In this document: positions 2,439-64,000 of the stretch, piece after piece
Layout: the number at the start of each line of letters is the position of its first letter
Numbering within the stretch: the stretch's first letter is position 1
Assembly (NCBI RefSeq): GCF_024502345.1
Contig: NZ_JALDNN010000001.1
Length of the DNA: 64,000 nucleotides
Strand: one strand, 5' to 3'
Source: Escherichia coli
GTDB taxonomy: Bacteria; Pseudomonadota; Gammaproteobacteria; Enterobacterales; Enterobacteriaceae
The notes under the pieces: generated by a model
Told to the model about the DNA's origin: nothing
What the model saw: only the letters and a program-made list of their open reading frames with translations
Databases searched by the model: none
Position numbers and translations under genes: made by a program

Positions 2439-3290
2439 ATGAGTAGTTTGTTGTTGTTTAACGATAAGAGCAGGGCACTGCAGGCGGATATCGTCGCCGT
2501 GCAGTCGCAGGTAGTGTACGGCAGCGTAGGCAACAGCATTGCCGTGCCTGCTATCAAACAGAACGGCCTGAATGTCTTTGCCGTGCCGACGGTATTGCTG
2601 AGCAATACGCCGCATTATGACACTTTCTACGGTGGTGCGATTCCGGACGAATGGTTTAGCGGCTATTTGCGTGCGCTTCAGGAGCGTGATGCGCTGCGCC
2701 AACTTCGTGCTGTAACCACGGGCTATATGGGAACGGCATCGCAAATCAAAATCCTTGCCGAGTGGCTGACTGCGCTACGCAAAGACCATCCTGATCTATT
2801 GATCATGGTCGATCCGGTGATTGGCGATATTGATAGCGGAATTTATGTCAAACCTGACCTTCCCGAGGCGTATCGACAATATTTACTGCCGCTGGCGCAG
2901 GGAATTACCCCCAATATCTTTGAGCTGGAAATCCTGACCGGTAAAAATTGCCGCGATCTCGACAGTGCCATTGCTGCCGCAAAAAGTCTGCTTTCAGACA
3001 CACTAAAATGGGTGGTGATTACCAGCGCCTCCGGTAATGAAGAAAATCAGGAGATGCAGGTTGTGGTGGTCACTGCCGACAGCGTGAATGTCATTTCCCA
3101 TTCACGGGTAAAAACCGACCTGAAAGGGACTGGCGACCTGTTTTGTGCTCAGCTCATCAGTGGCTTGCTGAAAGGGAAGGCGTTAACCGATGCGGTGCAC
3201 CGCGCGGGGTTGCGCGTACTGGAAGTGATGCGCTACACCCAGCAGCATGAGAGCGATGAATTGATTTTGCCGCCGCTGGCGGAAGCATAA
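2439..3290 (+). CDS. pdxK: pyridoxal/pyridoxine/pyridoxamine kinase
   Basis: 283-aa ORF, ribokinase-like fold motifs, RBS aaggagaaaaaa upstream; conserved position next to crr. Confidence 0.92.
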
Positions 3291-3882: not shown

Positions 3883-5610
3883 TTAGCAGATTGTTTTTTC
3901 TTCAATGAACTTGTTAACCAGCGTCATTAACTCGTCCGTTGTCGGTTGAGCAAGAGCCTGCTCTGCTAACACCTTCGCATCTTCGAAGTTCGTGTTACGG
4001 ATAATCTTCTTAATGCGCGGGATAGAAATGGCGCTCATAGAGAATTCGTCCAGACCCATCCCCAGCAACAGAAGTGTAGCACGTTCATCGCCAGCAAGCT
4101 CACCACACATGCCAGTCCATTTGCCTTCAGCATGAGAAGCATCAATAACTTGCTTGATCAAGTTCAGCACGGACGGTGACATTGGCTGGTAAAGGTGTGA
4201 AATCATATCATTACCACGGTCAACTGCCAGAGTGTACTGCGTTAAATCATTGGTGCCGATACTAAAGAAATCAACTTCTTTGGCTAAATGACGTGCAATT
4301 GTTGCGGCAGCCGGTGTTTCCACCATTACGCCGATTTCAATTGACTCGTCAAACGCTTTACCTTCGTCGCGCAGTTCCTGTTTGTAGATTTCGATCTCTT
4401 TGCGCAGTGCACGCACTTCTTCAACAGAGATGATCATCGGGAACATAATGCGCAATTTACCGAAAGCCGAGGCACGCAGGATAGCGCGGAGCTGATCGCG
4501 CAGGATCTCTTTACGATCCATCGCGATACGGATAGCGCGCCAGCCGAGGAACGGGTTCTCTTCTTTCGGGAAGTTCATGTATGGCAGCTCTTTGTCGCCG
4601 CCGATGTCCATGGTACGAACGATAACCGCCTGCGAGCCACACGCTTCAGCCACTGCTTTGTAAGCAGCAAACTGTTCTTCTTCAGTGGGCAGCGCGTCGC
4701 GGTCCATGAACAGGAACTCAGTACGATACAGACCAACGCCTTCAGCGCCGTTACGCTCTGCACCTTCAACGTCACGAACCGTACCAATGTTAGCGCATAC
4801 TTCTACCTGGTGACCGTCCAGCGTAATAGCTGGCAGATCTTTCAGTTTAGCAAGCTCTGCTTTTTCAGAAGCCACTTGCTCCTGAACAGCGCGCATTTTA
4901 TCAATAACTTCGTTGGTTGGATTGACGTAAACCTGATTATTTACGGCATCCAGAATCAGATAGTCGTCATTTTTCACCTGAGAGGTGACGCTACCGGTAC
5001 CCACGATAGCAGGCAGTTCCAGAGAACGCGCCATGATAGAGGTGTGGGAAGTACGGCCACCCGCGTCGGTGATGAAACCCAGCACCTTCTTCAGGTTCAG
5101 CTGTGCGGTTTCGGACGGCGTCAGGTCAGCGGCAACCAGAATGACTTCATCCTGAATGGCGCTCAGGTCGATAATCTTCAGGCCCAGGATGTTGCGCAGC
5201 AGGCGCTTACCGATATCACGTACGTCAGCCGCACGTTCTTTCAGGTATTCATCATCCAGCTCTTCCAGGGCAGAAGCCTGACCTTCGATAACTTCATGAG
5301 CAGCTGCGTCAGCTGTCATGTGCTTATCTTTAATCAGGGCTATGATTTCCTGCTCCAGCTCCTCATCTTCGAGCAGCATAATATGCCCTTCAAAGATGGC
5401 TTCTTTTTCTTCACCGAACGTTTCACCAGCTTTCGTTTTGATCGTTTCCAGCTGGGCTGATGCCTTGGCACGACCGCTCAGAAAACGTTCAACTTCCTGA
5501 TCAACCTGGTCGGCAGAAATTTTTTTCCGGTCAATGACAATTTCGTCTTCTTTCAGAAGCAGAGCTTTACCGAAAGCGATACCCGGGGATGCTAAAATGC
5601 CTGAAATCAT
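3883..5610 (-). CDS. ptsI: PTS enzyme I (phosphoenolpyruvate-protein phosphotransferase)
   Basis: 575-aa translation [19 protein letters not shown]... with PEP-utilising enzyme motifs; immediately downstream of ptsH. Confidence 0.97.
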
Positions 5611-5654
5611 AACCCTACCTTACTTGTGACTGATTTTTAAAAGAACCCGGGAAA

Positions 5655-61045: not shown

Positions 61046-61387
61046 TTAACCTGACATCCACTCACGCACCCATCTCGATACTTGCACTGCAAATTTTGGA
61101 GATAGCCACTGAGCTAAATTAATTGCGATGTCTGGATGAACCCAAGTCCCTTGATTCTCTGCTCTTCCGCCTTTAAATGATTGAATTAACTCCGATATGG
61201 GAATCCCCATATCGCGTGATAATTCATCAAAAAAATCTTGTGTTGTTTTTAGTCGTGTATAGTCAGCAAGTAGCTTCCCCGCAGACTTGCACATCGCGGT
61301 GGCATTGATGTATCCGTCTTTGGTGCGAAGATGGATGACTTCTCCATCAACTTCTCTAGCGATTAATGCAAGTTGAAATTGTGTCAT
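61046..61387 (-). CDS. KilA-N-domain protein in the rexA position, immediately downstream of cI
   Basis: 113-aa ORF with KilA-N hallmark segments (…DGYINATAMCKSAGKLLADY… and …GTWVHPDIAINLAQWLSPKFAVQVSRWV…); 31 bp from the cI stop, same strand. Confidence 0.65.
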   Translation of the reverse strand: MTQFQLALIAREVDGEVIHLRTKDGYINATAMCKSAGKLLADYTRLKTTQDFFDELSRDMGIPISELIQSFKGGRAENQGTWVHPDIAINLAQWLSPKFAVQVSRWVREWMSG

Positions 61388-61418
61388 AAATCATCCTATT
61401 ACGTGAAAAATAAAACAA

Positions 61419-62135
<717 letters not shown>

Positions 62136-62142
62136 TTAAATC

Positions 62143-62206
62143 TATCACCGCAAGGGATAAACTTCTAACACCGTGCGTGTTGACTATTTTACCTCTAGCG
62201 GTGATA
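62143..62206. promoter_or_regulatory. lambda-type right operator oR3-oR2-oR1 with pRM/pR
   Basis: tatcaccgcaagggata (OR3), taacaccgtgcgtgttg (OR2), tacctctagcggtgata (OR1, one change from lambda) between divergent cI and cro. Confidence 0.88.
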
Positions 62207-62232
62207 ATGGTTGCCTGTACTAAGGAGGTTGT

Positions 62233-62433
62233 ATGGAACAACGCATAACCCTGAAAGATTATGCAATACGCTTTGGGCAAACCAAGACGGCTAAAGATCT
62301 CGGCGTATATCAAAGCGCGATTAACAAGGCCATTCATGCAGGCCGAAAGATTTTTTTAACTATAAACGCTGATGGAAGCGTTTATGCGGAAGAAATAAAG
62401 CCCTTCCCAAGTAACAAAAAAACAACTGCATAA
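62233..62433 (+). CDS. cro: lambda-type Cro repressor
   Basis: 66-aa translation [66 protein letters not shown], two substitutions from recalled lambda Cro; RBS taaggaggttgtATG. Confidence 0.93.
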
Positions 62434-62440
62434 GTAACAC

Positions 62441-62486
62441 CGCTCTTTTCACAATGGACATTCGTCCTACGTCGCTGACAAAGCGA
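62441..62486 (+). promoter_or_regulatory. nutR-like site: boxA-like cgctcttt plus P22-type boxB hairpin
   Basis: cgctcttttcac… then tcgctgacaaagcga (5-bp stem, GACAA loop), unlike the lambda boxB gccctgaaaaagggc. Confidence 0.5.
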
Positions 62487-62570
62487 GCCCCAAGATATCT
62501 GACCAACTAAGGCCATATGCGTTTCCACGCATACCTTTCAACTAACTATTCACTATTGGAAAATTAACAA

Positions 62571-62867
62571 ATGACACAAGCAAGTTATAGCAAGCCAACA
62601 CAGCGAGAAATTGATCGCGCTGAAACTGATTTACTCATCAACCTGTCAACGCTTACCCAGCGCGGTCTGGCAAAGATGATTGGCTGTCATGAATCGAAGA
62701 TAAGCAGAACGGACTGGAGATTTATTGCTTCGGTCTTGTGTGCTTTCGGAATGGCATCAGACATCAGTCCGATTAGCAGGGCTTTTAAGTATGCATTGGA
62801 TGGAATCACAAAGAAAAAATCCCCGGCTGCCACCGAGGATTCTGAGCAAATTGATATGCAATTCTGA
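62571..62867 (+). CDS. cII: CII-like transcriptional activator (divergent from lambda CII)
   Basis: 98-aa ORF in the cII position; C-terminus KKSPAATEDSEQIDMQF parallels lambda CII KKRPAATERSEQIQMEF, the rest is divergent. Confidence 0.6.
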   Translation: MTQASYSKPTQREIDRAETDLLINLSTLTQRGLAKMIGCHESKISRTDWRFIASVLCAFGMASDISPISRAFKYALDGITKKKSPAATEDSEQIDMQF

Positions 62868-62888
62868 GGGAATTACTGGATCAATCCA

Positions 62889-63062
62889 CAGGAGTAATTA
62901 TGACAAAACGTCGTAAGAAATACCAGGAAAAAGAAGAGATTCGACACCCTGATTCACCTGAGGGATTAGTGGTAGCCGCAGCAAATAACAGGGCGTTCGC
63001 AGAGCGCCTTGTTGGTGTTTACAGACTAGCCAAAGCAGGAGTGAAACATGGGCGTCGTTAAG
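62889..63062 (+). CDS. hypothetical small basic protein (58 aa)
   Basis: ORF MTKRRKKYQEKEEIRHPDSPEGL… with RBS acaggagtaattATG; stop overlaps the start of the next ORF. Below the ORF-track cutoff. Confidence 0.35.
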
Positions 63063-64000
63063 TTAGCTGATTACAGGCCTCAACTGGAGGTCGTGGAGCA
63101 TCGCGTGGCAGATACCGAAGATGGTTTCATGCGCGTTGCTAACGAGATTACTCAATATCCAGACCAGATTGAATCCGTTCGTAAAGGCATGGGATTCATT
63201 GATGAAGACCAGCGTAATTCTATCGGCACCTTAGCGGCTGGCGCACGCCTTGCGTCATCGTCTCCAGAAGCAATGCAATCATGGCTGCAAAACAACGCCG
63301 GTGAGTTAGCTCGTGTTGGCGTTAATCCTCATGACGTCGCTCAGATGTACCAACAGAACCCGCGGCAGTTCGTCGAATTTGTCGATCACCTGGGGATGAA
63401 CAGTCTCGGGCCCGAAAAATACTTTGACCTACAGGATAAAATGCAGGGTCGCCAGGTTACCATGCGCGGTCAGGATCTGGATTCGCAAACCGCCGCTCGG
63501 AATCAGGCAATCACAATGCGCGGACAAGATATCCAGGCGAATTTAGGTCAGCAGCGCATTAATCTGGACGCAGAAACAAACCGCATTAACAACGAAAATA
63601 AGCGCCTTGACCGGATGCTATCAGCAGAAACTAACGACCTGAAGCGCCAGGAAATACAGAGCCGCATAGCAGCCAACAACCAGCAGTTGCAGCAGAAGCA
63701 GCAAGCGCTAAATGATGGCTACAAAGACGGCATCAACACCCTCACAACCAGCATGTTCACTCTGAACGATATCGTTAGTTCTCCTTCACTTAAGAGCATT
63801 ACAGGCTTACGTGGAGTAATCCCCAACGTTCCAGGCTCACAGGCTGCAGACACTCAGGCACGACTTGATACCTTTAAATCACAAGCATACCTGACAGCGG
63901 TTCAGGCCATGCGAGGCATGGGCGCACTTTCTGATGCCGAGGGCAAAAAGCTCGACCAGGCTGTTGGTTCGCTGCAGAACTCGCAGAGCGAGGAGTCCTT
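63048..64000 (+). CDS. hypothetical phage protein, 3' end outside window; Q-rich with internal tandem repeat
   Basis: Frame open from ATG at 63048 (RBS aggagtgaaacATG) to the window end (over 317 codons); contains repeats TMRGQDLDSQ / TMRGQDIQAN; no similarity to lambda O. Confidence 0.5.
   Translation, partial: MGVVKLADYRPQLEVVEHRVADTEDGFMRVANEITQYPDQIESVRKGMGFIDEDQRNSIGTLAAGARLASSSPEAMQSWLQNNAGELARVGVNPHDVAQMYQQNPRQFVEFVDHLGMNSLGPEKYFDLQDKMQGRQVTMRGQDLDSQTAARNQAITMRGQDIQANLGQQRINLDAETNRINNENKRLDRMLSAETNDLKRQEIQSRIAANNQQLQQKQQALNDGYKDGINTLTTSMFTLNDIVSSPSLKSITGLRGVIPNVPGSQAADTQARLDTFKSQAYLTAVQAMRGMGALSDAEGKKLDQAVGSLQNSQSEES

Follow-up and report, generated by a model that had tools for sequence, protein, structure and literature searches.

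An apparent HK97/H-19B-type nutR-cII module joined to a lambda-type immunity cassette in a probable prophage remnant of Escherichia coli

Introduction

The closest described relatives of the locus studied here are HK97, mEp234 and HK106, a class of phages in which lambda-type cI, cro, OL and OR are joined, at the cro stop and boxA, to non-lambda nutL, nutR and cII. HK97 (NC_002167; cI gp50, cro gp51, cII gp52, gp53 and O gp54) has kept N (gp47), and both its O/P region and its set of virion genes are complete. The mEp234 and HK106 records annotate lambda-type operators, the boxA and boxB elements of nutL and nutR, pRE and a CII site, at positions equivalent to those found in the present locus (EF120460 and EF120461; Degnan et al. 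2007, Mol Microbiol 64:232, pmid 17376085). The junction between the two kinds of DNA has thus already been described, and it is widespread in prophages of E. coli.

H-19B shares the non-lambda part of this arrangement and has its own cI and cro, which confer a different immunity, together with an intact N. Two hairpins have been reported in H-19B nutR, the arginine-rich motif of its N (12-RSRRRER-18) and its Rho-dependent tR1 terminator have been documented experimentally, and N-dependent read-through has been demonstrated for its nutR/tR1, which is 96% identical to the corresponding DNA of the present locus (Muteeb et al. 2012, PMC3526286). The N protein cognate to the module is 127 aa long, near-identical in HK97, H-19B and mEp234, and contains the arginine-rich motif RSRRRER; its last 33 aa are 67% identical to P22 gp24. 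Neely and Friedman (2000), whom that study cites, reportedly described the dyad symmetry in the H-19B spacer as a 'reducer' stem, and are said to have found BOXA, NusB and S10 to be dispensable for H-19B N.

Here, we describe a locus of this kind in a 64,000-nucleotide stretch of E. coli DNA, hereafter referred to as the window. An initial annotation had drawn attention to the segment from 62434, the base right after the cro stop, to 62867, the final base of the cII stop.

Results

Similarity to lambda is lost abruptly at the end of cro

The window was compared with lambda by pairwise alignment and by a sensitive blastn search (word size 9), which gave three HSPs (Table 1). Across 62448-62805, neither procedure detected any DNA similarity to lambda, and the identity falls from 96% to undetectable within one nucleotide. 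Since no lambda similarity was found in this interval, homology to lambda is not continuous through nutR and cII. The initial annotation had proposed a mosaic junction just past a lambda-type cro, followed by a non-lambda nutR and a divergent cII, and had named alignment with lambda as the check; the ends of the HSPs, at 62447 and 62806, bear this out. Its heading called cro lambda-identical; at the nucleotide level, the gene is 96.5% identical to that of lambda.

Table 1. Features of the locus, in order of position in the window
Feature	Position	Strand	Basis or remarks
N deletion junction	60221-60223	-	H-19B-type N leader ends ~55 nt short of N start; joined to DUF551 ORF
nutL boxB, GCGCU-GACAA-AGCGC (GCGCUGACAAAGCGC)	60296-60310	-	exact pattern match; identical to nutL boxB of HK97, H-19B and P22
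nutL spacer hairpin, GAUUC-AAAUAU-GAAUC	60315-60330	-	predicted by folding
Lambda HSP 1: OL/pL/Timm	60340-60619		91% identity
OL1-OL3 and pL, lambda-type	60379-60441	-	operator and promoter scans; within lambda HSP 1
Lambda HSP 2: cI through cro and boxA	61418-62447		96.3% identity
cI repressor gene, lambda-type, 237 aa	61419-62132	-	agrees with lambda cI at 233/237 aa and 691/714 nt
OR operators (OR3 62143-62159; OR1 62190-62206)	62143-62208		operator patterns, 0-1 mismatch
pR promoter	62180-62208	+	promoter scan, 10/12; inside lambda HSP 2
cro, lambda-type, 66 aa	62233-62433	+	agrees with lambda cro at 64/66 aa and 194/201 nt; Pfam Cro, E 8e-34
Boundary stretch common to both modules (final cro codons with stop; boxA nt 1-7)	62426-62447	+	lambda and heteroimmune-phage HSPs overlap
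nutR boxA, CGCTCTTTT	62441-62449	+	read from sequence; 8 nt past cro stop; nutR boxA of EF120460 at equivalent place
nutR spacer hairpin, GGAC-AUUC-GUCC, between boxA and boxB	62456-62467	+	predicted in 137-nt fold
nutR boxB, UCGCU-GACAA-AGCGA	62472-62486	+	fold; annotated nutR boxB in EF120460; identical in HK97, H-19B and mEp506
tR1-region hairpin, AUGCGU-UUCC-ACGCAU	62517-62532	+	folds of window, lambda and P22 leaders
cII, HK97/H-19B type, 98 aa	62571-62867	+	Pfam Phage_CII; within 97.7% HK97 HSP (61423-63151)
CII-binding repeat of pRE, TTGC-N6-TTGC, inside cII 5' end	62580-62593	-	read from sequence
Lambda HSP 3: cII 3' end, oop-like terminator, cII-O linker	62806-62907		81% identity
oop-like intrinsic terminator overlapping cII 3' end	62816-62843	-	terminator scan
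HK97 gp53-like small ORF, 53 aa	62900-63061	+	uses conserved start context that lambda uses for O
Chimeric ORF: ~34 codons of P22 gp18/HK97 O-like replication gene, then P22-like gp20 injection protein	63048-64000	+	in-frame; junction near 63150

Within the lambda-type cassette, the space between cI and the Timm terminator (60602-60619) is taken up by a 113-aa KilA-N gene and an ORF of 101 aa that has no Pfam match (60701-61387, minus strand). The corresponding place holds rexAB in lambda, gp48/gp49 in HK97 and hicAB-type accessory genes in mEp234/HK106, which also differ from the window in having an intact N. By appearance, this is a slot for accessory genes, which would be expressed as part of the repressor transcript.

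The segment downstream of cro groups with HK97, H-19B and 933W

Over the 1 kb from 62100 to 63100, the window is 98% identical to HK97 and 95.8% identical to mEp234/HK106, all three of them lambda-immunity phages; identity to HK97 is 97.7% over 61423-63151. A 121-nt probe spanning the junction is present as a whole in HK97, mEp234, HK106 and PhiR5_2, with 95.9% identity in the case of mEp234/HK106. The window therefore shows both marks of the HK97 class, namely the lambda-type cI, cro, OL and OR and the non-lambda nutL, nutR and cII joined to them at the cro stop and boxA. Similarity to the non-lambda part extends beyond the lambda-immunity phages: the DNA at 62426-62505 is 96.3% identical to H-19B, 933W and numerous further Stx phages whose cro is unrelated, and that at 60223-60376, which covers the nutL region and the N leader, is 98.7% identical to H-19B. 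On these identities, we assign the nutR-tR1-cII segment to the HK97/H-19B/933W type.

The order of elements downstream of cro is that of lambda (cro stop, boxA, boxB, tR1 hairpin, pRE in the 5' end of cII and oop terminator in its 3' end), but the elements themselves differ. The boxA sequences have 7 of 8 nt in common (lambda CGCTCTTA), and that of H-19B reads CGCTATTTT as against CGCTCTTTT in the window. As the initial annotation noted, the boxB loop is GACAA, instead of the GAAAA of lambda boxB (GCCCU-GAAAA-AGGGC). The spacer between boxA and boxB is short and unstructured in lambda (8-9 nt), whereas in the window it has 22 nt and is predicted to form a hairpin. Both the boxB and the spacer hairpin are the same in H-19B and 933W, and the nutL boxB is also that of HK97. 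A hairpin occurs upstream of cII at the equivalent position in the folds of the window, lambda and P22 leaders, with a different sequence in each.

For nutR boxB, folding predicts a stem of 5 bp closed by a loop of 5 nt (-6.4 kcal/mol, z -2.4), and nutL boxB likewise has a 5-bp stem and a GACAA loop (-8.5 kcal/mol, z -3.5). The 11-mer GCTGACAAAGC occurs exactly twice in the 64 kb, at 62474 on the plus strand, past pR and cro, and at 60308 on the minus strand, past pL. Because both copies have the position and orientation expected for nutR and nutL, they are not due to chance. The locus thus has what defines lambdoid nut sites, that is, a boxA-like CGCUCUU(U)A element after the cro stop, a boxB pentaloop hairpin 3' of boxA and a sense-oriented copy on each early transcript, as well as what distinguishes the H-19B/HK97/933W type, high identity to H-19B nutR and nutL and a hairpin in the boxA-boxB spacer. 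An Rfam search of 59000-64000 in E-value mode returned only a chance match to Leu_leader and nothing for nut or oop.

In the Stx2 phage 1717, both boxB elements have a 4-nt GAAA loop (CGCU-GAAA-AGCG and GGCU-GAAA-AGCC; nutR near locus position 3036 and nutL near 364), whereas the module of the window, elsewhere 96% identical, has GACAA loops that are longer by one base. The nutL and nutR copies have changed in a coordinated manner, presumably to fit another N.

cII encodes a complete CII homologue

The initial annotation considered cII to be recognizable only at its C-terminus. This applies to the DNA, in which only the 3' end resembles lambda, but not to the protein: residues 1-92 match positions 1-91 of the 91-position Pfam profile Phage_CII (PF05269; E 5e-34, 116.8 bits against a cut-off of 21.3), and identity to lambda CII is 38% over 88 aa (E 3e-12). 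The predicted product is a normal full-length CII homologue. The TTGC-N6-TTGC repeat, the CII target around the -35 of pRE, is as far from the start of cII as its lambda counterpart and as the feature that EF120460 labels 'CII binding site at pRE'. The 3' end of cII is still lambda-like in DNA, probably in part because it overlaps the putative terminator of the oop antisense RNA. The fold of this oop-like terminator parallels that of the lambda oop terminator, with two stem pairs changed on both sides and the pairing kept. It accounts for much of lambda HSP 3, and after it comes the conserved linker to the start of the next gene.

A second exchange boundary upstream of cII

No record of phage 21 itself turned up in the phage collection searched. 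HK629 was used as its proxy, chosen because its N is of the phi21 type (identical over a 44-aa N-terminal query). HK629 combines P22-type c2 and cro with phi21-type N and boxB and an HK97-type cII module. Like the window, it has a boxA-like element past the cro stop (TGCTCTTTA), but its boxB (CACCUCUAACAGGGUGAG) is unrelated. Homology to the window begins at 62540 (HK629 locus 1850-1995), a position that marks another boundary of exchange, downstream of tR1 and ahead of the cII ribosome-binding site. Since HK629 has a phi21-type N and boxB yet an HK97-type cII, the nutR-tR1 block (about 62426-62540) has been exchanged separately from cII.

The element lacks N and is fused from O to gp20

HK97, H-19B and mEp234 possess N, but a tblastn search of the 64-kb window with the N proteins of HK97, P22, lambda and mEp234 gave nothing with E < 0.1. 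Because N is absent from the window, both nut sites are orphans, without a cognate N in cis. The DUF551 ORF at the deletion junction borrows its ATG from the N leader. Leftward past DUF551 follow a 114-aa ORF without a Pfam match, TorI (minus-strand ORFs 59939-60232, 59494-59838 and 59158-59358 from DUF551 onward) and then the csc sucrose operon (about 53558-58629). This TorI-bearing remnant beside csc presumably resembles the KplE1/CPS-53 prophage of K-12, which lies at argW; argW was not seen in the 64-kb window. By the layout of KplE1, gp20 would be expected to be followed, past 64000, by gp16, tailspike, gtr, intS and argW.

On the right, the window differs from HK97 in lacking most of O in addition to N. 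Homology to HK97 stops at 63151, and from 63149 the window is 99.5% identical to the gp20 genes of APC_JM3.2 and IME10; residues 34-163 of the chimeric ORF match positions 87-217 of the Pfam profile Inj_translocase. The O'-gp20 chimera implies one large deletion spanning the replication, nin, Q, lysis and head genes. The element is thus a prophage remnant that has lost N and its replication, late-regulation, lysis and head genes.

Occurrence in E. coli genomes

Among 5,426 complete E. coli genomes, the junction of the window is present in 110, some of them 100% identical over 121 nt, and the lambda-type junction in 474. The junction is therefore real but ordinary, being both described and common. 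When the whole 5.1-kb stretch 58900-64000 was compared with the complete E. coli genomes, no record covered 80% or more of it; thus, this pair of deletions is not represented among them. The closest complete-genome match is E. coli 1008S19 (NZ_CP147050), with 99.7% identity over 60221-62938. Its N is damaged too, being annotated as a partial antitermination protein (locus 5564-5632), and an IS1 follows right after cII. Independent decay of N beside this immunity cassette may be recurrent.

Discussion

Our comparisons make it very probable that a lambda-type immunity cassette has been joined here to a nutR-tR1-pRE-cII module (62434-62867) as found in the HK97/H-19B/933W group of lambdoid phages, in a relic that lacks N and has O fused to gp20. 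The lambda-type cassette sits between an H-19B-type nutL and an H-19B-type nutR, and its borders are short sequences common to many lambdoid phages. On the right, the shared stretch of about 20 nt is GCATAAGTAACACCGCTCTT (by parts, GCATAA-G-TAAC-A-CCGCTCTT), common to both lineages; the left border is analogous, with the lambda and H-19B homologies overlapping at the start of the pL transcript, over its initial ~35 nt (60340-60376). By recombining at stretches of this kind, phages would swap immunity cassettes, and the N-specific nut sites would stay matched to the resident N. Either a lambda cassette entered an H-19B-type backbone or an H-19B-type nut/cII module entered a lambda-type phage.

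Two other origins of the segment were considered. It is hardly conceivable that no recombination took place at all and that nutR and cII, starting from a lambda-like ancestor, merely evolved more rapidly than cro. The retained 38% identity between the CII proteins and the common layout of boxA, boxB, tR1 hairpin, pRE and cII would fit such descent, but the loss of similarity to lambda is step-like, and phages with cI and cro unrelated to the lambda genes have the divergent segment in near-identical form, a pattern that only horizontal exchange explains; gradual divergence was rejected on these grounds. Direct acquisition from P22 or a close Salmonella relative is very improbable. The initial annotation had called the boxB 'P22-type', and for the hairpin this is correct: the GACAA pentaloop is closed by a U-A pair in both copies of the window (CU-GACAA-AG), nutL boxB equals that of P22 at 15 of 15 positions, P22 shares a boxA of the CGCTCTTT form, and the cognate N of the relatives has the P22 gp24-like C-terminus already mentioned. 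However, the nutR boxB of P22 is CCGCCGACAACGCGG, the DNA flanking the P22 nut sites is unrelated, and gp24 (100 aa) resembles the HK97/H-19B N only in the arginine-rich motif and those C-terminal 33 aa. P22 c1 aligns poorly to the window, and blastn (word size 9) found no P22 homology in 62434-62874, the sole P22 matches being a 35-nt cII/O linker and a piece of O. A direct P22 origin was rejected on the absence of such an HSP, and the segment is 96-100% identical to the coliphages HK97, H-19B and mEp506. 'P22-type' thus holds for boxB only, and the segment is, as judged by alignment, not P22 DNA.

The initial annotation confined the breakpoint to the interval between the cro stop and nutR, which is close but too narrow, because the ambiguity extends into nutR, whose first element, boxA, belongs to the stretch. 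A crossover strictly within 62434-62440, the 7 nt that separate the cro stop from boxA, is rather unlikely. The differences from lambda at 62434 and 62439, which match H-19B and mEp506, fit a junction at or just before 62434, but 62427, inside cro, also has the H-19B allele, homology to the heteroimmune phages starts at 62426 (H-19B and 933W), 62428 (mEp506) or 62440 (Stx2-1717), and lambda identity runs through boxA to 62447. All three mismatches to lambda in 62427-62447 thus have the H-19B/mEp506 allele; against a background of 35 differences in 1,009 nt, 3 in 21 nt gives P = 0.035, a weakly significant indication in favor of a crossover at or before the last cro codons. The exchange probably took place at or before the end of cro, and because the clustering is marginal, we leave the interval at about 62410-62447, any point of which the data permit.

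In an intact relative, the 127-aa HK97/H-19B N would bind the GACAA boxB hairpins through RSRRRER. Together with NusA, it would enable RNA polymerase to pass the Rho-dependent tR1 and to transcribe cII and the replication genes, as has been shown by experiment for H-19B and as the 96% identity of the site suggests here, and CII would then act at the co-inherited TTGC-N6-TTGC of pRE. In the window, the nut sites would be able to respond only to N supplied in trans. It is conceivable, though improbable, that such use is the reason why the N-less remnant has kept an intact lambda-type cI/cro switch along with its two H-19B-type nut sites: once cI has been cleaved in the SOS response, an H-19B/933W-type (Stx) phage, either co-resident or superinfecting, would provide the N for antitermination at the orphan nutL and nutR. 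If so, DUF551, the 114-aa ORF and TorI (an excisionase and TorR inhibitor) would be switched on leftward, and the O'-gp20 fusion and whatever follows it rightward, and the remnant would in effect be a sensor for helper phages of one particular class.

The lambda-type cassette between H-19B-type nut sites is otherwise a case of the textbook modular mosaicism of lambdoid phages, in which the immunity cassette is exchanged between short conserved boundaries and the nut sites on either side continue to fit one another as well as the type of N in the backbone. The practical outcome is one of annotation: nutR would be labeled as HK97/H-19B-type and not as P22-derived, and the locus as a lambda-immune, N-less prophage remnant from which the replication and head genes have been deleted.
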